This document shows, one piece after another, positions 2,851 to 23,175 of a stretch of DNA of 64,000 nt. The stretch is from a virus: the IMG/VR virus record IMGVR_UViG_3300032316_000329, positions 1-64,000 of that record; one strand, written 5' to 3'. Position 1 is the stretch's first letter; every line of letters starts with the position of its first letter. A program made the position numbers and the translations under genes. Below the pieces are notes generated by a model. It searched no databases. It was not told the origin of the DNA and saw only the letters and a list, made by a program, of their open reading frames with translations.

Positions 2851-3686
2851 TGAGTAGATTGAAAACACCTTTACGATATCCTGGCGGTAAGAGTAAGGCA
2901 ACCACTAAAATGGCACCTTACTTTCCTCTTAAGAACAATGTTAAACATTATAGAGAACCGTTCCTTGGGGGCGGTTCTGTTGCATTATGGATGAACCAGA
3001 ACTATGACCTTGAGAGTGTGTGGGTGAATGACCTTTACTGGCCTCTCTATAATTTCTGGATTCATTTAAGAGACCACGGTGAAACTCTTTCAAATGCTCT
3101 ATATGAAACCAAAAAGAACTATGATACAGTGGATAAATGTAGAGAACTATTTGAGGTTTCTAAAAAAGAACTGAGTGATAAAGATGCCACCAACATAGAA
3201 AAGGCAATAAACTTTTGGATCGTCAATAAGTGTTCCTTCTCTGGTCTCACCGAATCCTCTTCATTCTCGGCGGCCGCATCACAAGGTAACTTCACTCTTA
3301 AAGGTATCACAGACCTTAAAGAATATTCTAAACTTATTAAAAACTGGAAGATTACAAATGTATCCTATGAAAAACTCCTCGAAGAACAATCAGACGACAC
3401 CTTCATCTATCTCGACCCTCCTTATGAAATCAGTTCCAACCTATACGGCCGAAAAGGTGCTATGCATAAAGGTTTTGGCCACGATTTGTTTGCTCAACAT
3501 TGCCGGGATGCTTCTGTTATGGTCAATATGGCCATATCTTACAATGCCGACCAGTCAGTGAAAGATAGGTTTCCAGATTGGGAGCAGCATGAGTTTCCAC
3601 TAACATATACAATGCGGTCTAACTCGGCCAACTATCGTAAGAACCAACCGAAGCGACTGGAATTGCTGCTTACCAATTATGACTAA
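2850..3686 (+). CDS. dam: DNA adenine methyltransferase (Dam/D12 class)
   Basis: PLRYPGGKS, EPFLGGGS, YLDPPY. Confidence 0.9.
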   Translation: MSRLKTPLRYPGGKSKATTKMAPYFPLKNNVKHYREPFLGGGSVALWMNQNYDLESVWVNDLYWPLYNFWIHLRDHGETLSNALYETKKNYDTVDKCRELFEVSKKELSDKDATNIEKAINFWIVNKCSFSGLTESSSFSAAASQGNFTLKGITDLKEYSKLIKNWKITNVSYEKLLEEQSDDTFIYLDPPYEISSNLYGRKGAMHKGFGHDLFAQHCRDASVMVNMAISYNADQSVKDRFPDWEQHEFPLTYTMRSNSANYRKNQPKRLELLLTNYD

Positions 3687-3713
3687 ATATGGAGTAAAAC
3701 TAATAGGACTGGT

Positions 3714-4835
3714 ATGGCAAAACAACCTGAAATAAAGTATCTTACAGGTGGTGAACAAACTACTGTAAATTCCACCATCACCGAACTATTTCCATGTCTC
3801 GCTTTTAATAGTGGTGCCAGACCAAAAAGTTGGCAAGAAATGGAATCGTTTATTAAAGGTGTAAATCTAAAAGGTAAAAGAACTGAAAAAACATTTGTGA
3901 ATAATAGCAATGCCAAGGCAGCAGAAACATTTATTAAAAAGTTGGATTTAATTCGACCTAAAATGAAGGAAGAAAAACTAAAAAATGCCTGTGCTATCAC
4001 CGATTATCTCTATGACTTGAATAAAAAAAGGGCAATATCCTATGTTGTATGGGGTTATAGAGAGAAACCAAAAGGTGTTCCTGCCGGCCATGCTGGTGAT
4101 ATATTTGTATTCTTCACAGACAAAGCAAGTCCTGCCATATTGGGCGTATCATTAAAGGCAGGTTCGGAATCATCAAAAGAACCTAAATTAAATAGTTATG
4201 TAAAAACAACTCTAATGAAGCCTATTTGGAAAAAAGCGGCGCCCAACGCTTTAGATGAATTAAAAAACGAATTATGGGTTAATGTTTATTCTAAAATACC
4301 TAAACTACCTAAGATGGTAAATAAAGATAATTATTATACAACCGTTGGAACAAAAGAAGCATTAAGGGTTCATCCCGCTTTGATTGAGGCTCTTATTGAG
4401 TTTTTTGAAAGCAACCCTAAAAAGTTTGATGAATTATATGGTGTTATGAACCGTTTATGCCGACAAAAAATGGCTAGTGTTATCAACAAAAACTTTGACA
4501 CCACAAAAAAATGGATTAGAGAAGAGTTTAGACTTGAAAGCGGTGATAGTAAGAAAGTAGAATGTCCTTTAGTCCTTGTAAAGGCAATAGGGCAGAAATA
4601 TGATATAAATGAAGATAAACTCGCCTCATTCATAAGATTGGCTACATCTGCCAAGGCATATCTGAAAGAGGATTCGGTACAAGAATGGTTTATTGATCTT
4701 ACCAATAATAAGAAAGAAAAGATTACATTATTAATGACTATTCGATCCGATTCAGAATTTCGTAGGTCAAAACCAAAAGGTAAGTTAGGAACATTTGTTG
4801 GTCTCAAACTTTTGTATAGAGGTGTTAAAAAGTAA
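3714..4835 (+). CDS. Putative PD-(D/E)xK nuclease-fold protein
   Basis: AGDIFV...ILGVSLKAG motif; late promoter at 3682. Confidence 0.5.
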   Translation: MAKQPEIKYLTGGEQTTVNSTITELFPCLAFNSGARPKSWQEMESFIKGVNLKGKRTEKTFVNNSNAKAAETFIKKLDLIRPKMKEEKLKNACAITDYLYDLNKKRAISYVVWGYREKPKGVPAGHAGDIFVFFTDKASPAILGVSLKAGSESSKEPKLNSYVKTTLMKPIWKKAAPNALDELKNELWVNVYSKIPKLPKMVNKDNYYTTVGTKEALRVHPALIEALIEFFESNPKKFDELYGVMNRLCRQKMASVINKNFDTTKKWIREEFRLESGDSKKVECPLVLVKAIGQKYDINEDKLASFIRLATSAKAYLKEDSVQEWFIDLTNNKKEKITLLMTIRSDSEFRRSKPKGKLGTFVGLKLLYRGVKK

Positions 4836-6076
4836 TGCTTAAATTCAAACAACACCTAACCGAGTCTGCCGCAGAGAAAGATCGTCACCTCACACATATC
4901 GAGGATGCCGTTCTTGAAGGTGGTGTTGCTGGCACTCGCAATGCTATACAGTTTTTAATCTCGTTAAGAGATATGTTTGCCGATGATGGCAAAACACTAA
5001 AAGAGGCCCGTGGTGGTCTTATTCTTAGAACTAAGTTCGATGGTGCACCGGCACTCTATGCCGGTATCAATCCTGAAAACGGAAAGTTCTTCGTAGGTTC
5101 TAAATCAATATTTGCCAAGAATGCCAAACTTAACTACACCGTTGCTGATATTCGGAGTAATCATAGCGGTGGTTTGGCAGAAAAGTTAGAGACTGCGTTG
5201 AAATACCTACCAGAACTAGGTATTACTGATATCATTCATGGTGATTTTATGTATTCACGAAATGAACTAAAATCGGAAACCATAGATGGTAAAAAATATA
5301 TCACGTTTCGCCCTAACACGATCACGTATGCTGTTCCGGAAGGTACGACACTCTCTCGCCAGGTACTTTCTTCTCGAATGGGAATTGTTTTTCACACTAC
5401 TTATCACGGTTCCTCTATGTCTACTCTCCAAACTCATTTCGATGTTAACATAGGGAAATTAAGACCATCTAAGAATGTTTGGTATCGTGAGAACAAGTTT
5501 ATGGATGTTACTGGTCGTGCCACGTTAACAAAATCTGAGAACGATAGACTATCCAGTATTCTCACACAGGCCGGTGGTTTGTTTAGAACCATCCCTGCTT
5601 CTCTATTAAATCAACTCGCAACAAATGAAACATACCGTGTGCCTATTATGACCTATATGAACCAGAAGGTTCGTGCTGGTCAGCATATGGGACCAAACTT
5701 TGTTAATGAGGTTATGAATTTCATTGCGGATAAATACAACAAATCTATTAATGATGCCAAACGTCCTGATACCAAAGCCAATCGTAAAAGAGAAAAAGAT
5801 GCGATTATGCGTTGGTTTCATCAGAACAGGGTCGGACTAAAAAGCATTTTCGAGTTGCAGAACCTTTTCATTGATGCCAAAACTATGTTGATTCGTAAGT
5901 TTAATCAGGTTAACGATATTGGTACCTTTATTCATACACCTGAAGGTGGTTTTAGAGTAACTACACCAGAAGGATATGTTGCTGCTTGGAGTTCTGGTGG
6001 TGATGCTGTTAAATTGGTAGACCGTATGGAATTTTCAAGAACAAACTTCCTCGCCACAAAGAACTGGGGAAAATGA
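4835..6076 (+). CDS. Ligase-like covalent nucleotidyltransferase with capsid-targeting-like N-terminus
   Basis: TKFDGAP (motif I KxDG), IIHGDFM, PEGYV, AVKLV; N-terminus MLKFKQHLTE. Confidence 0.6.
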   Translation: MLKFKQHLTESAAEKDRHLTHIEDAVLEGGVAGTRNAIQFLISLRDMFADDGKTLKEARGGLILRTKFDGAPALYAGINPENGKFFVGSKSIFAKNAKLNYTVADIRSNHSGGLAEKLETALKYLPELGITDIIHGDFMYSRNELKSETIDGKKYITFRPNTITYAVPEGTTLSRQVLSSRMGIVFHTTYHGSSMSTLQTHFDVNIGKLRPSKNVWYRENKFMDVTGRATLTKSENDRLSSILTQAGGLFRTIPASLLNQLATNETYRVPIMTYMNQKVRAGQHMGPNFVNEVMNFIADKYNKSINDAKRPDTKANRKREKDAIMRWFHQNRVGLKSIFELQNLFIDAKTMLIRKFNQVNDIGTFIHTPEGGFRVTTPEGYVAAWSSGGDAVKLVDRMEFSRTNFLATKNWGK

Positions 6077-6687
6077 AATCATTCTTAGAATATATAAATG
6101 AATCAAAAGCAAATATAACACTCAATATTTTTGATATTGATGATACCTTGTTTATGTCTACTGCTAGAACCGCCGTTGTAAAAGATGGTAAAGTTCTTCG
6201 TAAACTAGACACCAGAGAATTACTTCATTATAAATTAAAACCAGGTGAAAAGTTTGACTATGGTGAGTTCCGTTCTGGTAAACATTTCTATGATACTGCT
6301 ACACCTATTGAGAAGATGATTAGACGGGCACAGCAAACGGTTCATAATGAAACAAACTCTAAAACCATTATCATCACCGCTAGGTCCGATTTGAAAGACA
6401 AAGACCTGTTTCTAAAAAAGTTTAGAGAACATGGATTCCCTATCGACCAGGTACATGTCGAACGGGCAGGTAATGTAAAGAGTAAAGGCACCAACTCACC
6501 TCTTTCAAAAGGTGTAGTTATTCGTAAATATATCGCAAGCGGACTATATAAAAGAATAAGAATGTGGGATGACCATCCTGGCAATCTAAGTCTATTGCTT
6601 AAACTGGCCAAGTTACATCCAGAGATTTCGTTTGAAGCATATTTAGTAGATTCAGAAAAAGGCACATCAACGAGGTTTACGGGATGA
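6073..6687 (+). CDS. HAD-superfamily phosphatase with capsid-targeting-like N-terminus
   Basis: FDIDDTL, IITARS, MWDDHPGNL; N-terminus MKSFLEYINE. Confidence 0.75.
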   Translation: MKSFLEYINESKANITLNIFDIDDTLFMSTARTAVVKDGKVLRKLDTRELLHYKLKPGEKFDYGEFRSGKHFYDTATPIEKMIRRAQQTVHNETNSKTIIITARSDLKDKDLFLKKFREHGFPIDQVHVERAGNVKSKGTNSPLSKGVVIRKYIASGLYKRIRMWDDHPGNLSLLLKLAKLHPEISFEAYLVDSEKGTSTRFTG

Positions 6688-6806
6688 CAAAGATTAAAGA
6701 AGATTGCGGTTGCGAGACGGGTCATCCCGAAACAAAACCAATGCCTATCGTTAAGACAATTAAAAAGATTGTTAAAAAGGTAAGAGAAAAGAAAAAGTAT
6801 AAATAA
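6684..6806 (+). CDS. 40-aa basic peptide MTKIKEDCGCETGH...
   Basis: ATGA overlap with upstream gene, SD GAGG; below ORF-track cutoff. Confidence 0.55.
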   Translation: MTKIKEDCGCETGHPETKPMPIVKTIKKIVKKVREKKKYK

Positions 6807-6832
6807 CAATATAATCCTGTAGAGGGAAAGAT

Positions 6833-8833
6833 ATGAAAAAAATAGTATTCACATTCGGCCGATATAATCCGCCTACCACAGGCCACGCAGAATTAATTAC
6901 ATATGCGGTAAAACTGGCACAGAAAAAAGGTGCCGAGCATCGTATCTATACTTCCCAATCACACGATCCTTCCAAGAATCCATTGGCACCAAAACAGAAG
7001 ATGGCGTTTCTTCGCCAGATTTTCCCTGGTGTAAACTTTGTGGATGATCCATCTATGAAAACAGCATTTGCTATTGCCAAGAAACTAGCAGATCAAGGTT
7101 ATGAAGATGTTACATTTGTTGTTGGTGATGATCGTGTAAGAGAGTTTACTATACAACTTGGTAAATATGTAAAACCAAGAACAGACAAAGATTTTGATCC
7201 TAAGAAGCATTATCCATTTAAACATTTTCAGGTTGTTTCATCTGGTGCTCGTAAAAAAGGTATTTCAGGTACAGACCTGCGCGCCGCTGTCCGTAGAGGT
7301 GACTTCGCTACATTTGCCAAAGCATCTGCTGCCAGGGATAAATCACTAGTAAGACAGATTTTCTCCGCTACAAAGGCACAACTAAAAGAACAAGCACTAA
7401 ATGAAGATATGACACGCAAGGAATTTGATGGTCATCTAAAGTCATTCATGAAGTTTACCGCTGACAAACTTGGTTTTGATGAAATGCCAGAGGTCATCTA
7501 TAAAGAACCAGACGACCATGGTGACCAACCATCTTTTGGTGGTTATGCACCTGGTGAAAAGAAACTTGTTGTTATGACTAAAAACCGCCATCCGATGGAT
7601 ATCTTTAGAACCGTAGCACATGAGTTAGTTCACCATAAACAGAACCTTGACGGTCGTTTAGGAAAAGATATCGCACATGAAGGTTCAACTGGTTCCGATA
7701 TTGAGAACGAGGCCAACTCTGAAGCAGGTAAGGTAATGCGTTGGTTTGGTAAGTCCAACCCAGATATGTTTGGTAAGTCATTCGTTATTGAAGGCTATGC
7801 CATTCTATTGGGCGGTGTACCAGGTTCCGGTAAAGATAAGGTTCTCAAAGAGGCTATTTTACCACACGGTTTCAAGGAAGTATCACAAGAAAACTTTAAA
7901 CTTGATGAATGTACCGGTGAAAATCTCGTTGTAAACGGTACCATGTCAGGTTATGAACAAACCAGACAAATCAAAGATATTCTAGAATCCGCTGGTTATA
8001 AAACCATGATGGTCTTTGTTAATACATCAGACGAAGTTTCAAAACAGAGAAATGAATCCCGTGCCACTAAGGGTGGCCGAGTTATTGCTGAAAATGTCCG
8101 CTTCTCAAAGTGGCAGTCGGCACAAATCAATTTAGAAAAGTATGATAGACTATTTGAAAAAGTCATTGAGGTCAAGAATGATTTTGATGTAAATGACATT
8201 GCAGATACTTGGTCAAAACTTATGGAATCAGTATCAAAGGAAATTGTAGAGTTTACACTATCCGATGCCGACCGTAATTTTGAACAAATGCTAAACGAGG
8301 TCGGTGGTGCTGGTAATTGGGGCACACCTAAACTTACACACCGCTACCAGAAAGACACACCAGGTCAAACAATTGGGTTTAGACCTATGAAAGTATTGAG
8401 ATTTAAGAATAAGATGAAAAATGAACAGAAGAACCAAAGTAAAGGTCCTTCACCAAGTTTACAAATCAGTGCTGATAGAATAGGCCAAGAAATAGGATTC
8501 GCAAAGAGTCCAGGTTTCGGCACACCATTTGATGACTTTAGTGTGGGTATTAGTCCATCCGTTATTAACGATCCAATAGGTCGTTGGATGGTCAAAGAAG
8601 AAACTAAAAGAAGATTTAAAGAGAAATATGGAAAGTTGGCCGAACAAAAGATTAGGGAAACGGCCGAGAGATTAAAGAAAGCACAATATGAAAGTCTAGT
8701 GGATCCATATGCAGGTGGTGGTCAAGGCGCTACACCTAACTCCGGTAATGTAGAAGATATAAGACCGGATATAAATGCAGAAGATGAAAAAACTAGTCTA
8801 TTCAGAAAAAGAAAACATAAATATACTAAATAA
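6833..8833 (+). CDS. Multidomain protein: cytidyltransferase-like + HEXXH peptidase + P-loop kinase
   Basis: FTFGRYNPPTTGH and ISGTDLR (CTP_transf-like); AHELVHHKQ; GGVPGSGKD..NGT..RNESR. Confidence 0.8.
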   Translation: MKKIVFTFGRYNPPTTGHAELITYAVKLAQKKGAEHRIYTSQSHDPSKNPLAPKQKMAFLRQIFPGVNFVDDPSMKTAFAIAKKLADQGYEDVTFVVGDDRVREFTIQLGKYVKPRTDKDFDPKKHYPFKHFQVVSSGARKKGISGTDLRAAVRRGDFATFAKASAARDKSLVRQIFSATKAQLKEQALNEDMTRKEFDGHLKSFMKFTADKLGFDEMPEVIYKEPDDHGDQPSFGGYAPGEKKLVVMTKNRHPMDIFRTVAHELVHHKQNLDGRLGKDIAHEGSTGSDIENEANSEAGKVMRWFGKSNPDMFGKSFVIEGYAILLGGVPGSGKDKVLKEAILPHGFKEVSQENFKLDECTGENLVVNGTMSGYEQTRQIKDILESAGYKTMMVFVNTSDEVSKQRNESRATKGGRVIAENVRFSKWQSAQINLEKYDRLFEKVIEVKNDFDVNDIADTWSKLMESVSKEIVEFTLSDADRNFEQMLNEVGGAGNWGTPKLTHRYQKDTPGQTIGFRPMKVLRFKNKMKNEQKNQSKGPSPSLQISADRIGQEIGFAKSPGFGTPFDDFSVGISPSVINDPIGRWMVKEETKRRFKEKYGKLAEQKIRETAERLKKAQYESLVDPYAGGGQGATPNSGNVEDIRPDINAEDEKTSLFRKRKHKYTK

Positions 8834-8870: not shown

Positions 8871-9923
8871 ATGTTTAATAACAGATTTAATTCTACCCAT
8901 AAGGACCCGCTTGTAGAGGCGGTTAAACAAGCACAGCAGGACGGTGAAACTCGCCGTCAGGCCGAAGCATATGTAAATGAACAGTTTGGTGTTTATTCAC
9001 GCAATGCAGTTGTCCGTGAGGACCTTGCTGCTTATGATGCTGCCATTGAAGAGGCATATAAGTGCATGAAAGAAGGTAAACCACTCGATCCTGTCGGTCG
9101 TGAAGATAAAGACATCGATAACGATGGTGACCACGACAAGTCCGACAAGTACCTTCTAAACCGCCGCAAGGCAATCGGTAATGCCATGGGTAAAAGAATG
9201 GAAGAAGGTGCTATGGATTCCGATGTTGTCGGTGGTGGCGCTGTAACCAAAGACAACAAACCAGTTGTTTCTTCAACAGCACCAAAAGTAAACACATCAG
9301 GTCCATCTGCTTCTGATAAAGCAGGCCTTGCTGCTAAAATCGGTGCTATGAAAGAAGAAAAGTTGGATGAACTAAAAAAGACAACTCTAGGATCTTATGT
9401 TGGTAAGGCCGCCAACGCAAACTATGGCAAAGAAAAACTAGAGCGTGAAAAAGGCGTGAAACTTGCCATGGATAAAATCAAAGGTAGATATGGTGTTGTC
9501 AAGGCTACAGAAGAAACACAGATTGATGAAGTATCAAAGGGTAGAGCAATCTCCGCTTATAGACAAAAAGAAGGCGAGGAGCGTGATACATCTAAACTAC
9601 ACGGTCTAATCAAGAGAAAGTTTGGTAAAGAAACAGCCAAGCACGCCGAACGTGCAGGTGGCCGTGATACTGGTAATCTAATCCGTCGTGGCGAAGATCG
9701 TGGCAAAGAAGATTCCATTGCCCGTGACCAGAGATTAGGTTCTGCTGCTCGTAAGACAAAGAGTGGAAAAGTCCATAAGCAAGATACTACCACACTAAAA
9801 GGTAACATCAAGCGCCGTCTTGGTTCACATACAAAACCAAAGAATCTTCCAGAAGAGGTCATGAAGGAATCAATCAAGGCCAAACTTCTCGCAAAGTATA
9901 TGAAAGAAGATCAGTCTTTCTAG
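8871..9923 (+). CDS. Probable internal head (prohead core) protein
   Basis: Late promoter at 8825; highly charged; many LxE/IDE/MKE sites; DIDNDGDHDKSD Ca-binding-like loop. Confidence 0.6.
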   Translation: MFNNRFNSTHKDPLVEAVKQAQQDGETRRQAEAYVNEQFGVYSRNAVVREDLAAYDAAIEEAYKCMKEGKPLDPVGREDKDIDNDGDHDKSDKYLLNRRKAIGNAMGKRMEEGAMDSDVVGGGAVTKDNKPVVSSTAPKVNTSGPSASDKAGLAAKIGAMKEEKLDELKKTTLGSYVGKAANANYGKEKLEREKGVKLAMDKIKGRYGVVKATEETQIDEVSKGRAISAYRQKEGEERDTSKLHGLIKRKFGKETAKHAERAGGRDTGNLIRRGEDRGKEDSIARDQRLGSAARKTKSGKVHKQDTTTLKGNIKRRLGSHTKPKNLPEEVMKESIKAKLLAKYMKEDQSF

Positions 9924-9961: not shown

Positions 9962-11062
9962 ATGGCGGTAGATATGATTAATCCTCCTGCTATTCAAGGA
10001 CCTGCAAAAGCAGGCGTCCAAAAAGCGGCAGCAACCAGACCTTCTGTTGGTGCAAGATTTGCACCACTTAATAAAGTGGCGGCACAAACAACAGTCAATC
10101 CTGTTAAAATGATGCCAAAACCTCCTGTAAATATGTCTGCTATGAAAGGTCCAATGATGAATATGGGTAAGAGCGTGCCTGTTACTTCACCCGTTTCTGC
10201 GGCCGCATCTGCCGCACCTAAAAGTCTAGCAAGTAGAGTTGCTGGTATTGCTAGTAATCCTGTTGTTGGTGCTGCTACTGCTTCTTATAGTTTGGGCCAA
10301 TTAGCAACTGGTACTGAAACAGGCAGAGCAATAGGTAAATCTATTGGTGATAATTTTCCTGGACTAAAATCAGCAATGGCAAAAGTAAAAGATTACAGAG
10401 ATAATGTTGTTGCTCCAAAACTTGGTATGAAATCACTTTCAACTGCTGCTGATACACCATATATCTCAAAGGCTGTAAAATCTGTAATGCCTGGGGATTC
10501 TAAAGCAGAACCAACACCTACTTCAAAAGCAGAACCTTCTTCTTTCAAGCAGGCATTTGCCGCGGCAAGAAAAGAAGCAGGTAGTTCCCAAGGTCAATTT
10601 ACCTATAAAGGTAAAGAATATCAAACTAACTTAAACCCTGCCAAAGGTACTGAAAAGTATATTCCTGCTTCACAGCAAAAGGTAACAAGTGTTGGTAAGA
10701 CATCTACTACCGCACCATCTACCACATCTTCAACCAGCACAACACCTGGTTCAACGAGCATTAAAGCACAACCGGCACCACCATCTTCTGCTACGGCAGG
10801 AATGAGTTCTGCTGCTGAAAAGTCTGGTATTTCACAGACACCAACAACATCAGGTACAGAGTTTGGTGCCGGTAAAAATGTTTCATCTACACCAATGCCA
10901 ACAACATCAACACCTGCGGCACCTACCCCTAAGTCACCTGAACCAGAGGCCAAGGGTGCTGTAACAACTGCTCCTGAAAAGAAGCAGAGAGAATCTGGAA
11001 CAACATTACAAAATGTTGCTGAAAGCGTCCAAGTTGGTGATTATAAATATAGGATTGTATAA
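9962..11062 (+). CDS. Low-complexity Ala/Pro/Ser/Thr-rich virion protein (possible frameshift extension of 8871)
   Basis: SFKQAFAAARK..G..FTYKGKEY.T motif; no clear SD; frame open back across the upstream stop. Confidence 0.6.
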   Translation: MAVDMINPPAIQGPAKAGVQKAAATRPSVGARFAPLNKVAAQTTVNPVKMMPKPPVNMSAMKGPMMNMGKSVPVTSPVSAAASAAPKSLASRVAGIASNPVVGAATASYSLGQLATGTETGRAIGKSIGDNFPGLKSAMAKVKDYRDNVVAPKLGMKSLSTAADTPYISKAVKSVMPGDSKAEPTPTSKAEPSSFKQAFAAARKEAGSSQGQFTYKGKEYQTNLNPAKGTEKYIPASQQKVTSVGKTSTTAPSTTSSTSTTPGSTSIKAQPAPPSSATAGMSSAAEKSGISQTPTTSGTEFGAGKNVSSTPMPTTSTPAAPTPKSPEPEAKGAVTTAPEKKQRESGTTLQNVAESVQVGDYKYRIV

Positions 11063-12017: not shown

Positions 12018-13610
12018 ATGAAAACTTTCCGTGATTATCTAAAAGAAGAAGTAAAAATCGGTGCCCTCGCAAGCGGGGGTATCGGCATTGAGCGTGATGC
12101 AGTAAGAGACGAAATTAACGGTATTCTCTCCGGCATTGGCTCACAACCATGTATTACACCTTATGGTTCACTAAACAGGATTCGTAAGGCCCTTGCCTAT
12201 TTCAGCATCTTCCTTCCAAAGAAAGTGTATATGGAAGGCCGTCATGGTATAGAGGTTTGGGAAATTCATCAGTTCGGTGATAAGATGGGTATGACCGACC
12301 AAGGTGAGTTTATCAAATCTGTTCCTGCCAAGTATTATCTTTTCTTACATTATCATTTGATTGGTTCAATGTATTATCTTGAATCTAAAATTGTTGATGA
12401 TAATGAACTTGAAGAAAGATTGAGTCGCGCCGAGCGTATGGTTGCGGAAGAGGCCGATGCATCTAACCGTCAGGGTATTGCTAAAGCAATGGCTCCTAAA
12501 GAACCAATGCATGATGAAGATGATGATGGCACCGTAAGCACAAAGAAGGCTGTTGAGGTTTCTATGCGCCGTAAGGACAAGAAACTATCTGCGGACTCTT
12601 TGGATGAAGCAATGACCCGTAAGCAGAAAGATATGGCGGTTCGCCGTTTCATGTCTCACGATCCAAAGGCTGGTGAAAGTATTCTTGCTATGGGTAAGAA
12701 AGAGCGTGAAGAGAAGAAATCATTTGCTTCTGGTAAGAAAGAGGTCAATCGTCTCAAAGAAGAAGAACAGATTGATGAGGTTTCTCTAGGCAAACTTGTT
12801 CGCTATAAAAATGAACGAGATAAAGATGTAAGAGTAACTGGTATTTCTGCTTCTCATTCAGAAGATATGGCAAAAGGCCATAAAGCAAGCGGTAATGAGA
12901 AAAAGAGTAAAGAGTTTTCTGATGAAGGAAAGTGGCTAAGAGGTAAGCAAGACAAAATGAAAGCAGGTATTAAACTTGCTGATAAGAAGATGAAAGGTAA
13001 AGCAAGAGTAAATGCTTCTATGCCTAAGCATCCTTACATGGAAGAAACCATGGAAGAAGGTCGTATGCCTCCTTCTGTTATCGCTCATAAACAAAAACTT
13101 GCTTCTATGTCCGACAAAGAGTTTGCTGAAAAGCACGGTCATAAGTCAGAAAAGCAATTGCGTGATATGGGTGCCCGTCATGGTTATGGATTTGATAAAG
13201 CAACCAAGACAGGTAGCGACCATTATGTAAAACGTGCCGCATCTAAACAGATTGATGAGAAGGCCCCTCCAGGTGCCAAGTATGAAAGAATGGTTAAGCA
13301 CATCAAGGCAGGTTATGCTAAAGATGGTCTAACTGCCAAGGAAAAAGGCATTGCCTTTGCTACGGCATGGAAGGCCAAGAAAAAAGAACAAATGGACGAG
13401 GCCATGGGTTCTGTAAAGAAGTCACATGCTTATAGAAAAATGAAAACTAAGGTAAATACAATTGTTAGAAAAGGCCTCGGTAAAAAAAGAGAAACCGGTA
13501 CCATTCTTGTAACAAATAAAGGTGATCCACATGCTGCCACAGGTGGTGGCGTTCGTCGTATTCCAAAAGATAAATATGATCCTTCAAAGCACAATATGGC
13601 ATCAGAATAA
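12018..13610 (+). CDS. Probable internal head polyprotein
   Basis: MKTFRDYLKEE CTS-like start; repeated LDE/IDE/MEE/MDE sites separating basic segments. Confidence 0.65.
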   Translation: MKTFRDYLKEEVKIGALASGGIGIERDAVRDEINGILSGIGSQPCITPYGSLNRIRKALAYFSIFLPKKVYMEGRHGIEVWEIHQFGDKMGMTDQGEFIKSVPAKYYLFLHYHLIGSMYYLESKIVDDNELEERLSRAERMVAEEADASNRQGIAKAMAPKEPMHDEDDDGTVSTKKAVEVSMRRKDKKLSADSLDEAMTRKQKDMAVRRFMSHDPKAGESILAMGKKEREEKKSFASGKKEVNRLKEEEQIDEVSLGKLVRYKNERDKDVRVTGISASHSEDMAKGHKASGNEKKSKEFSDEGKWLRGKQDKMKAGIKLADKKMKGKARVNASMPKHPYMEETMEEGRMPPSVIAHKQKLASMSDKEFAEKHGHKSEKQLRDMGARHGYGFDKATKTGSDHYVKRAASKQIDEKAPPGAKYERMVKHIKAGYAKDGLTAKEKGIAFATAWKAKKKEQMDEAMGSVKKSHAYRKMKTKVNTIVRKGLGKKRETGTILVTNKGDPHAATGGGVRRIPKDKYDPSKHNMASE

Positions 13611-22776: not shown

Positions 22777-23175
22777 ATGACATGGATACACAATAGAGAA
22801 CCCCTCACAGAAATTCCTGAAAATGCCATTGGTTTTGTTTACCTCATAACAAACCAAGCCAATGGTATGAAATACATCGGCAAGAAGAACTTTTACTTTT
22901 CTAAGACCAAGCAAGTCAAAGGTAAGAAGAAAAGAATAAAGGTCGAGTCTGATTGGAAAGAATATTATGGTTCCAATAAAACTCTTGTCGAACATGTCTC
23001 ACTATTCGGTGAGAATAAGTTCATTCGTGAAATAATCCACCTTTGCTATACTAAGGGGGAAATGACATATTACGAAACAAAGGCAATCTTTGCCGATGAT
23101 GCGGTTATTTCCGAAAAGTATTATAATGATTGGGTAATGTGCCGAGTAAGGAAAAATCATATAAAAAAGACTTGA
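22777..23175 (+). CDS. GIY-YIG (Seg-like) nuclease domain protein
   Basis: GFVYLITN..YIGKK..WKEYYGS..REI..YYN. Confidence 0.8.
   Translation: MTWIHNREPLTEIPENAIGFVYLITNQANGMKYIGKKNFYFSKTKQVKGKKKRIKVESDWKEYYGSNKTLVEHVSLFGENKFIREIIHLCYTKGEMTYYETKAIFADDAVISEKYYNDWVMCRVRKNHIKKT

Follow-up and report, generated by a model that had tools for sequence, protein, structure and literature searches.

What would a T4-like phage do with late genes that look equipped to mend broken polynucleotide ends, and why should two of their products begin like proteins bound for the phage head? The question is raised by positions 1 to 64,000 of IMG/VR virus record IMGVR_UViG_3300032316_000329, hereafter the window, which is the first 64 kb of a 165,114-bp record rated 99% complete. 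Three neighbouring, co-oriented open reading frames (ORFs), singled out in an earlier note on this DNA, are present there on the plus strand at 4835-6076, 6073-6687 and 6833-8833, and encode proteins of 413, 204 and 666 residues. The explanation we favour, tentatively and at slightly less than an even chance, is that they form a late module of polynucleotide-end enzymes, at least two of them addressed to the head, which would mend ends after injection, with RNA as the likeliest substrate. The rest of the record carries a T4-like gene set (gp21-type prohead protease, scaffold, tail tube, baseplate and tail-fibre proteins). Judged by the first of the three genes, which belongs to family DUF6267, the closest cultured relatives are Kyanoviridae and allied T4-like phages (34-42% protein identity) that infect Synechococcus, Pelagibacter, Methylophilales and Stenotrophomonas; a nucleotide search of the module block against 50,697 phage records gave no near match.

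The DUF6267 gene (4835-6076, plus strand; Pfam PF19782, E 5e-99) encodes a 413-residue protein that appears to be a covalent nucleotidyltransferase of the RNA-ligase type, with a helical insert and no OB domain. Its AlphaFold model has a pLDDT of 92, with disorder at residues 1-14. In an exhaustive structural alignment of this model (VIA-align), the top eight matches were all RNA ligases (Z 6.7-8.2, root-mean-square deviation (rmsd) 3.7-4.9 Å, 165-198 residues): Naegleria NgrRnl (Z 8.2), T. brucei REL1 (TbREL1, Z 8.1), T4 Rnl2 (two entries, Z 8.0), three Trl1 ligase domains (Z 7.0-7.6) and T4 Rnl1 (Z 6.7). Below these came 3qwu, deposited as a 'putative' DNA ligase (Z 6.4), two archaeal RNA ligases (8uce and 5d1o, Z 6.3-6.4) and about eleven DNA ligases (Z 5.4-6.2). 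The RNA-ligase matches span four or more families, and a BFVD search listed annotated phage RNA ligases after the family's own members.

Conservation points the same way. Across 99 diverse homologues (34-56% identity), K67-x-D69-G70, D137, E379-G380 and K393 are invariant or nearly so; K67, D69 and G70 are kept in at least 90% of these sequences and are invariant across 29 fused forms, and the K67-x-D-G motif lies between two strands in the model. The other invariant or near-invariant positions among the 99 members are Q135-G-D137, F158-x-P-N-T-I-x-Y165, H187-T and K393-L-x-x-R397. A helical module (residues 233-357) is inserted between motifs IIIa and IV. The roughly 20 residues after motif V form one short helix (397-406), with no OB domain and no motif VI, and DUF6267 therefore has the build of an RNA ligase. 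In an hhalign comparison that did not reach significance (E 0.087), the PEGYVA...VKL segment pairs with motifs IV/V of T4 Rnl1 (EGYVAV...FKI), placing E379-G380/K393 opposite Rnl1 E227-G228/K240. Because a single superfamily fills the match list and the motifs fall in order, the model shows, in our judgement, a covalent nucleotidyltransferase fold with RNA ligases as best matches, the Z level being only moderate by itself. This bears out the earlier note, which had called the protein a KxDG ligase-like enzyme and had looked to Rnl1 and Rnl2 for its structural relatives (T4 Rnl2 and Rnl1 are both among the eight). From sequence and model we read DUF6267 as a separate branch of the covalent nucleotidyltransferases that would work like a ligase. 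It is a sizeable family (464 phage records; 2261 clusters at 50% identity), which the literature we searched does not mention by name and which may have been described under another one.

Could the substrate be DNA instead? We consider it rather unlikely, though the idea is a serious rival that draws on several findings, that DUF6267 is a nick-sealing DNA ligase in place of T4 gp30, which together with the kinase and the HAD protein would repair 'dirty' single-strand breaks of the injected genome or join Okazaki fragments; packaging would then permit repair before transcription begins. The best fold matches, Rnl2, REL1 and NgrRnl, are nick-sealing enzymes, and mouse PNKP, a DNA-repair kinase, is among the matches of the kinase domain described below. 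Profile searches of this 99%-complete genome found no ATP-dependent ligase (no match to PF01068, ATP-dependent DNA ligase), no NAD-dependent DNA ligase and no Rnl2-type ligase; PF01068 was likewise missing from six of the eight DUF6267-bearing phages tested, and an NAD-type ligase from all six tested for it. In cyanophages, HTVC008M and Melnitz, moreover, the gene follows UvsX, gp41 helicase and MazG. Yet the absence of an OB domain and motif VI, with only about 20 residues past motif V, is an RNA-ligase build, and DNA ligases score about 2 Z under the best RNA ligases, 3qwu (Z 6.4, 'putative') excepted. A late promoter would be odd for a replication ligase, and some relatives of the 666-residue protein carry a HicA-type RNA-binding domain. 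In its strict form, as a replacement of gp30, the proposal is not upheld, since S-CRM01 and DLP6 carry a canonical DNA ligase as well as DUF6267.

The third gene (6833-8833) gave a model with three domains and a disordered tail, all encoded on the plus strand. Residues 1-190 (6833-7402; 1-188 in the model) form a predicted HIGH-type nucleotidyltransferase domain with GRYNPPTxGH and ISGTDLR motifs (Pfam CTP_transf_like, phrog_3041). Residues 195-312 (7415-7768) form a HExxH, zincin-like domain in which H263-E264-x-x-H267 and E291/N295 are invariant in 60 homologues; it has a faint match to the phrog_87 metalloproteases, one homologue is named an ImmA/M78 peptidase by one source, and no matching fold came up for this part. 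Residues 320-480 (7790-8272; 319-477 in the model) form a P-loop kinase domain of apparent polynucleotide-kinase type (structure matches; Pfam Zeta_toxin, AAA_33). The tail, residues 482-666 (8276-8833), is mostly disordered (pLDDT <50) apart from one conserved basic helix (581-621), in which R584, W585, E589, F595, Y599 and G600 are invariant in the 60 homologues. Searches of PDB sequences with the DUF6267, HAD and 666-residue proteins, as single sequences or profiles, gave nothing meaningful, and NCBIfam and PADLOC nothing useful.

The kinase domain gave the clearest structural neighbours. Its top five VIA-align matches are all the kinase of C. thermocellum Pnkp (CthPnkp; Z 14.9-15.1, rmsd 2.2-2.4 Å over 138 of about 170 residues, 21-22% identity), followed by the tRNA-acting kinases Kti12 and PSTK (13.7-14.3), adenylate kinases (13.5), mouse PNKP (13.0) and a fungal kinase (9drz, 12.9). 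The Foldseek ranking was also headed mostly by polynucleotide kinases. The Walker A motif GVPGSGKD is invariant in 60 homologues, as is E349, 15 residues past the Walker A lysine; this placement is presumably close to that of the catalytic Asp of CthPnkp and T4 Pnk. The earlier note's P-loop kinase stands on these grounds, as does the likeness to Pnkp that it expected, CthPnkp being the nearest solved structure (Z 15.1). On the model, polynucleotide kinase is the best reading of this domain, not a settled one. Among homologues of the 666-residue protein, those of the P0407, P0419, P0438 and P0460 type (about 725-740 residues) combine an added HicA_toxin domain (PF07927) with the kinase and usually the nucleotidyltransferase. 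The HicA_toxin domain is an RNA-binding or mRNA-interferase fold.

The nucleotidyltransferase domain opens a different line of explanation, as it aligns about equally well with phosphopantetheine adenylyltransferase (PPAT, Z 13.8), the NadM nicotinamide mononucleotide adenylyltransferase (NMNAT, 13.1) and NadD (12.6). The 666-residue protein might be NadR-like or CoA-synthase-like, that is, an NMN or phosphopantetheine adenylyltransferase joined to a small-molecule kinase, which would replenish NAD+ or a related cofactor where defences deplete NAD; in that case the ligase-like protein would use or regenerate the cofactor and the HAD protein would be a nucleotidase. Weak NCBIfam matches to NadR NMN adenylyltransferase and to NadD, far below their cut-offs, agree with this, and phage fusions of a HIGH nucleotidyltransferase and a P-loop kinase have been read as NMNAT plus nicotinamide-riboside kinase (PMC7824862). 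The closest families of the HAD protein are class IIIB acid phosphatases, and the conserved partner of DUF6267 is the nucleotidyltransferase, not the HAD gene. We nevertheless regard cofactor supply as quite improbable: the kinase is nearest CthPnkp, Kti12 and PSTK, with no NadR entry in either top-50 list (Foldseek or VIA-align), no nicotinamide phosphoribosyltransferase was seen in the block, and the ligase-fold enzyme is left without a role.

The middle gene (6073-6687, plus strand) encodes a 204-residue protein of the HAD superfamily. Motifs I-IV are recognisable as D21-x-D23-x-T25, T102, K146 and D166-D167, all invariant in 52 HAD homologues, which upholds the DxDxT phosphatase call of the earlier note and makes the product an active-looking phosphomonoesterase by sequence. 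It matches phrog_415, a family annotated 'polynucleotide kinase' (E 7e-10), and its Atlas (language-model) neighbours are class HAD-IIIB acid phosphatases and DUF2608. In this phage the HAD gene is separate from the kinase gene, not fused to it. In some homologues of about 350 residues (P0373, P0376 and P0384), the chain is extended at the C-terminus and bears a DGHHRW motif reminiscent of domains of the ParB/sulfiredoxin type.

Do these genes belong together? Of 45 viral contigs that extend 3 kb or more beyond DUF6267 on its downstream side, 29 have a nucleotidyltransferase there, 14 a kinase, 12 a HAD gene and 7 a zincin domain. Among 29 DUF6267 proteins of more than usual length, at least 10 have a HIGH nucleotidyltransferase fused on one side or the other, and one (P0161) has a P-loop kinase; cyanophage S-PM2 encodes a 591-residue ligase-nucleotidyltransferase fusion. 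The same gene order is kept in DLP6, HTVC008M and Melnitz, and in the Pelagibacter phage HTVC008M a stand-alone kinase gene separates the ligase-like gene from the nucleotidyltransferase. Where a HAD gene is present, it lies downstream of DUF6267 and upstream of the nucleotidyltransferase gene. The counts, the fusions and the kept order therefore define a conserved core of ligase-like enzyme and nucleotidyltransferase, often with a kinase, and the module recurs in related phages in the sense that nucleotidyltransferase and kinase are repeatedly found beside the ligase-like gene or fused to it. Lineage-specific additions are the HAD gene and the restriction-endonuclease-like gene upstream. Thus, of the module of ligase, phosphatase and kinase that the earlier note had drawn, with the nucleotidyltransferase as an extra, the ligase-kinase linkage stands; the HAD gene is not a conserved partner, and the supposed extra is part of the core.

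The frequency of ligase-nucleotidyltransferase fusion points, in a further proposal that we also think rather improbable, to a two-enzyme chemistry. DUF6267 would be a new RNA-ligase family in a virion-delivered end-mending kit that also holds a phosphatase and perhaps a Pnkp-type kinase, and would be obligately paired with its PPAT/NMNAT-like partner, and the pair would carry out a new nucleotidyl-transfer chemistry on RNA or DNA ends, for example donor-nucleotide supply or recycling, or a cofactor-type cap. Such a chemistry would explain the 'cytidylyltransferase' of cyanophage particles.

Why, then, the unusual N-termini? The ligase-like protein starts MLKFKQHLTE (4835-4864, plus strand) and the HAD protein MKSFLEYINE (6073-6102, plus strand), each in ten codons, and both resemble the T4 leader, which we take to be MKTYQEFIAE. 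Within the ten-residue T4 leader, residues 4 and 7 serve targeting and residues 8 and 10 processing (PMC9026906). With F4, H7, L8 and E10, the ligase-like leader has suitable residues at all four positions, and so do MKSFLEYINE and a third start, MKTFRDYLKE, on a gene at 12018-13610 (plus strand) for a 530-residue Lys/Glu-rich protein with no Pfam family. We scanned for M-x(1-3)-[FYW]-x-x-[FYWH]-[LIVM]-x-E, and found it at 3 of 2850 candidate ORF starts genome-wide, namely 4835, 6073 and 12018. A looser motif starting at residue 4 returned the same three alone among 217 genes, all in one late block. Over 120 close homologues, the leader of the ligase-like protein keeps these four positions and drifts at the others. 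Across 80 diverse contigs the leader core motif begins 59 of 78 DUF6267 proteins, 22 of 45 nucleotidyltransferases and 6 of 15 HAD proteins, compared with 4.5% of other ORFs and 1.7% of shuffled N-termini. A HAD homologue begins either with the leader or right at the catalytic DIDDT strand, and the leader thus behaves as a portable tag.

The genome also encodes the enzyme that would remove such leaders, a gp21-type prohead protease (genome 112181-112666; PF03420, E 7e-35), with phrog_207 and phrog_237 marking protease and scaffold, and a putative maturation site of the major capsid protein, ALNE/AAPT (the slash marks the cut), resembles the leader end YLNE/AAAE of homologues. Just 5' of the protease gene, at genome 111340-112131, lies a gene for a 263-residue basic protein that starts MFQLLEHILN, leader-like except for Asn at position 10, and is possibly a prohead core protein. 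By its sequence the 12018 product is likely to be a head-internal protein, and together with low-complexity proteins at 8871-9923 and 9962-11062 it looks like part of a run of head-internal proteins.

Virion proteomics of a related cyanophage offers an independent view. The S-CREM2 virion proteome comprises 52 of 221 proteins, and cytidylyltransferases and kinases are frequently detected in cyanophage virions (PMC10665884). Scanning the whole S-CREM2 genome, we found five annotated starts with the leader motif: gp6 (SAM hydrolase), gp13, gp14 (kinase), gp154 (cytidylyltransferase) and gp175. The virion proteome contains the first four of these, among them all three proteins classed there as 'regulatory' (PMC10665884); the chance of at least four in five is small (hypergeometric p ~0.012). 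The fifth, gp175, was undetected in virions, and with 55 residues it is easily missed by mass spectrometry. The S-CREM2 homologue of DUF6267, gp87 (302 residues), has no leader and is not in the virion list. This comparison supports, by analogy, a rule that the leader means packaging in this phage group, which makes packaging of the 4835 and 6073 products likely and does not extend to the 666-residue protein. In the literature we searched, 'capsid targeting sequence' and 'cyanophage' occurred together only in a T4 review. Two cyanophage proteins, S-CREM2 gp12 (L005 7704-10313) and S-CRM01 g128 (L004 8424-8975), have longer N-termini with internal leader-like stretches, LRFASFMAE and LSLDSFIKE, at about residues 17-26; these recall the 19-residue propeptide of T4 IPI, and gp12 is in the S-CREM2 virion proteome.

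It is possible that the leaders have nothing to do with packaging and are a conserved amphipathic start that aids folding or translation initiation, the enzymes acting in the cell late in infection. The motif is short, gp175 has it and went undetected, the 666-residue protein lacks it, and abundant non-structural proteins may co-purify with virions, true packaging being left open by the authors who gave that warning (PMC10665884). We find this explanation unlikely, since the register and positions 4, 7, 8 and 10 equal those mapped in T4, the motif sits on 3 of 217 genes in one late block, three unrelated enzyme families show strong enrichment of it across 80 contigs, and HAD homologues either have or lack it as a whole; 4 of 5 S-CREM2 motif genes, moreover, are found in virions (p ~0.012), and gp175 has only 55 residues. 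The earlier note had quoted the two T4-like starts correctly and they are in T4 register; its further suggestion that the whole kit is head-loaded agrees with the two leader-bearing products, with the late promoters and with the gp21-type protease, but not with the leaderless kinase-bearing protein, which might still ride into the head with the ligase-like protein.

Two features of the 666-residue protein touch on this point. Its low-confidence linkers (residues 187-192, 313-319 and 482 onward) coincide with [LVM]-x-E sites (LNE, VIE and MLNE; consensus L-x-E, VTE and MLE) that would fit cutting by the prohead protease, though such sites are common by chance. The start of the zincin domain (7415-7470, residues 195-212) reads MTRKEFDGHLKS, a leader-like F-x-x-H-L-x-S with Ser at the place of the cleaved Glu; F198, L202 and F205 are conserved, and the stretch may serve as a targeting element inside the protein or be no more than a helix.

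When would these genes be expressed? CTAAATA occurs in 42 copies genome-wide, 19 of which sit 10-60 nucleotides (nt) 5' of a same-strand start, where about 1-2 are expected (some 3% of the sequence falls in this zone). The genes so marked encode the prohead protease, scaffold, tail tube, three baseplate or fibre proteins and a gp2-like end protector, and also include those at 3714 and 8871; the copy at 3683-3689 (plus strand) lies 31 nt upstream of the 3714 start. The T4 late-promoter consensus TATAAATA stands at 6798-6805 (plus strand), 35 nt upstream of the 6833 start. Since CTAAATA precedes structural genes as well as 3714 and 8871, and TATAAATA precedes 6833, the block is, judging by these motifs, very probably transcribed together with the structural genes, in line with the 'late genes' of the earlier note. 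We rejected TATAAATA as the late promoter of this phage, as its count in the window is no higher than chance, and CTAAATA is the enriched motif. The start of 4835-6076 overlaps the stop of the preceding gene by 1 nt, 6073-6687 overlaps 4835-6076 by ATGA (6073-6076), and 6833-8833 begins after a 146-nt gap; because of the two overlaps, the 3714, 4835 and 6073 genes look like one tightly coupled unit, translationally coupled by appearance.

From the folds, motifs, promoters, leaders, protease, linkage and fusions we infer packaging, cleavage, all of the enzyme activities, substrate and timing as follows. The leaders of the ligase-like and HAD proteins would bind the scaffolding core of the prohead, the gp21-type protease would cut them off after Glu10, and the mature enzymes would remain in the DNA-filled head to be ejected with the genome. 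In the new host the kinase would phosphorylate 5'-OH ends and the phosphatase would clear 3'-phosphate ends; the ligase would then close the break. The likeliest substrate would be RNA, for instance tRNA that anticodon nucleases of the host, or other RNases of its defences, have cleaved, and repair would come before phage protein synthesis. Healing and sealing of this kind is the reading that uses ligase, kinase and phosphatase together. RNA is favoured as the substrate by the ligase build, the ranking of RNA ligases, the tRNA-acting kinase matches and the HicA-type domain in relatives.

A number of results weigh against this scheme. For the ligase-like protein, a fold score of Z ~8 is only middling by the tool's own scale, and Foldseek of the model against PDB returned nothing at E <= 0.001, with ligases only among the weak matches. 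Membership in the T4 Rnl1 and Pnkp families, which the earlier note implied, failed on sequence: hhalign gave DUF6267 a probability of 0.7% to Rnl1 and 0.1% to Rnl2, the PF09414 profile recovers T4 rnlB and gives no match in this genome, and a DUF6267 profile search of PDB sequences was empty. The second lysine of motif V is replaced (K393-L-V-D-R), a role in which the near-invariant R397 might stand in. The HAD protein aligns with T4 Pnkp in motif I only (D165-x-D167-x-T; hhalign probability 16%), its homologues are rare (one weak match among the 50,697 phage records), and the gene occurs in only 12 of the 45 DUF6267 neighbourhoods. As for the kinase, its Z margin over adenylate kinases is only about 1.5, P-loop kinases all fall within about 2 Z, and the Walker A motif is GVPGSGK334-D335 (window 7823-7837), that is, GKD for GK[ST], with D335 invariant in 60 homologues. 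An N-terminal leader is absent from the 666-residue protein of this phage and from 120 close homologues. Cyanophage DUF6267 proteins are leaderless and their genes are located among replication genes. Finally, the PPAT/NMNAT-like domain, the ligase's most conserved partner, is not explained by healing and sealing.

How does the predicted end-mending module compare with known repair systems? It shares with T4 Rnl1 (gp63) and Pnkp (PseT), which mend tRNA-Lys cut by PrrC, a 5'-kinase, a DxDxT HAD phosphatase and a lysine-AMP ligase lacking an OB domain, all as predictions here. It differs in the fusion partners of the kinase, which are a nucleotidyltransferase and a zincin domain rather than the phosphatase, in having a helical insert where Rnl1 has a C-terminal tRNA-binding domain, and in its late genes, two of which carry head-targeting leaders; to our knowledge, T4 Rnl1 and Pnkp have no such leader. 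The CthPnkp/Hen1 RNA repair system has the same set of kinase, phosphatase and ligase-type adenylyltransferase, and its kinase domain is the closest solved structure. In CthPnkp, however, the three activities lie in one chain with a calcineurin-type phosphatase, whereas here they are in separate genes with a HAD phosphatase; CthPnkp works with the Hen1 methyltransferase, and no Hen1 domain turned up in our searches of the block; and the ligase domains of CthPnkp and DUF6267 have no detectable sequence relation.

Like DUF6267, Rnl2 (T4 gp24.1, T. brucei REL1), Rnl5 (NgrRnl) and Trl1 have a nucleotidyltransferase core and lack an OB domain (Z 7.0-8.2 over 178-198 residues), and in the fungal tRNA ligase Trl1, as in the P0161 fusion, ligase and kinase are joined, the Trl1 kinase being a polynucleotide kinase. 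Unlike in these enzymes, the helical module of DUF6267 is inserted between motifs IIIa and IV rather than appended, and the second lysine of motif V is absent. We know of no counterpart in Rnl2, Rnl5 or Trl1 ligases of its conserved N-terminal H-x-x-H-x-E-D element. On the packaging side, the leaders that gp21 cuts from T4 IPI, IPII, IPIII and Alt are alike in length (ten residues), in what occupies the key positions (hydrophobic or aromatic side chains at 4 and 7, Leu or Ile at 8, Glu at 10) and in coming from late genes alongside a gp21 homologue. The T4 head cargo consists of small basic proteins or an ADP-ribosyltransferase, whereas the cargo predicted here consists of nucleic-acid end enzymes.

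Closer to home, the 'cytidylyltransferase' and kinases of cyanophage virions (S-CREM2 and S-CRM01; PMC10665884) include the same nucleotidyltransferase family (phrog_395, phrog_3041). The single-domain nucleotidyltransferases of S-CREM2 and S-WAM1 carry a leader, and the S-CREM2 copy was found in virions; in the clade of our phage, by contrast, it is the ligase-like and HAD proteins that bear the leader, and the nucleotidyltransferase forms one protein with the zincin and the Pnk-like kinase. NadR-type proteins and phage fusions of NMNAT with nicotinamide-riboside kinase (PMC7824862) have the same order, a HIGH nucleotidyltransferase and then a P-loop kinase, and a fold near NadM and NadD. They differ from the 666-residue protein in that its kinase is nearest polynucleotide and tRNA kinases, a HExxH domain lies between, and the linkage is to a ligase-fold enzyme and not to a phosphoribosyltransferase.

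Placing DUF6267, which is found in several hundred sequenced marine and freshwater T4-like phages, in the ligase superfamily, and linking it to a Pnkp-like kinase and to the 'cytidylyltransferase' of cyanophages, provides a testable biochemical hypothesis for each of the three. Should the leaders function as they do in T4, repair enzymes would be injected with the DNA and counter-defence would run ahead of phage gene expression. This would bear on defences that cut tRNA or other RNA and on the survival of damaged virion DNA in sunlit water, and it would supply a sequence rule for predicting head cargo across abundant ocean and lake viruses.

Two neighbouring loci deserve mention. The first gene of the late block (3714-4835, plus strand) encodes a 373-residue protein without a leader that matches phrog_2496 (PHROG E 3e-54). 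Its ESM Atlas neighbours carry the families RE_HaeIII, RE_HpaII and R.HinP1I (HaeIII, HpaII and HinP1I/MspI type II enzymes), and structural comparison with two HinP1I clusters gave TM scores of 0.44 by query and 0.61 by row, and of 0.39 and 0.59; we take a restriction-endonuclease-like protein as a lead from sequence and model, not as proof. The Melnitz gene in the equivalent position opens with a leader-like MQGFKTFLSE. A conserved cyanophage trio of restriction-endonuclease-like gene, DUF6267 and cytidylyltransferase was considered and rejected, the upstream genes of S-WAM1 and C48C1 matching neither phrog_2496 nor any other PHROG at E < 1e-5; of the trio, general occurrence holds for the pair of DUF6267 and nucleotidyltransferase alone. 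Further downstream, at 22777-23175, a gene for a 132-residue protein stands behind a CTAAATA motif; it matches phrog_447 'NAD synthetase' (E 2e-39) and also homing-endonuclease families, and the 'NAD synthetase' label, doubtful as it is, may bear on the question of NAD.

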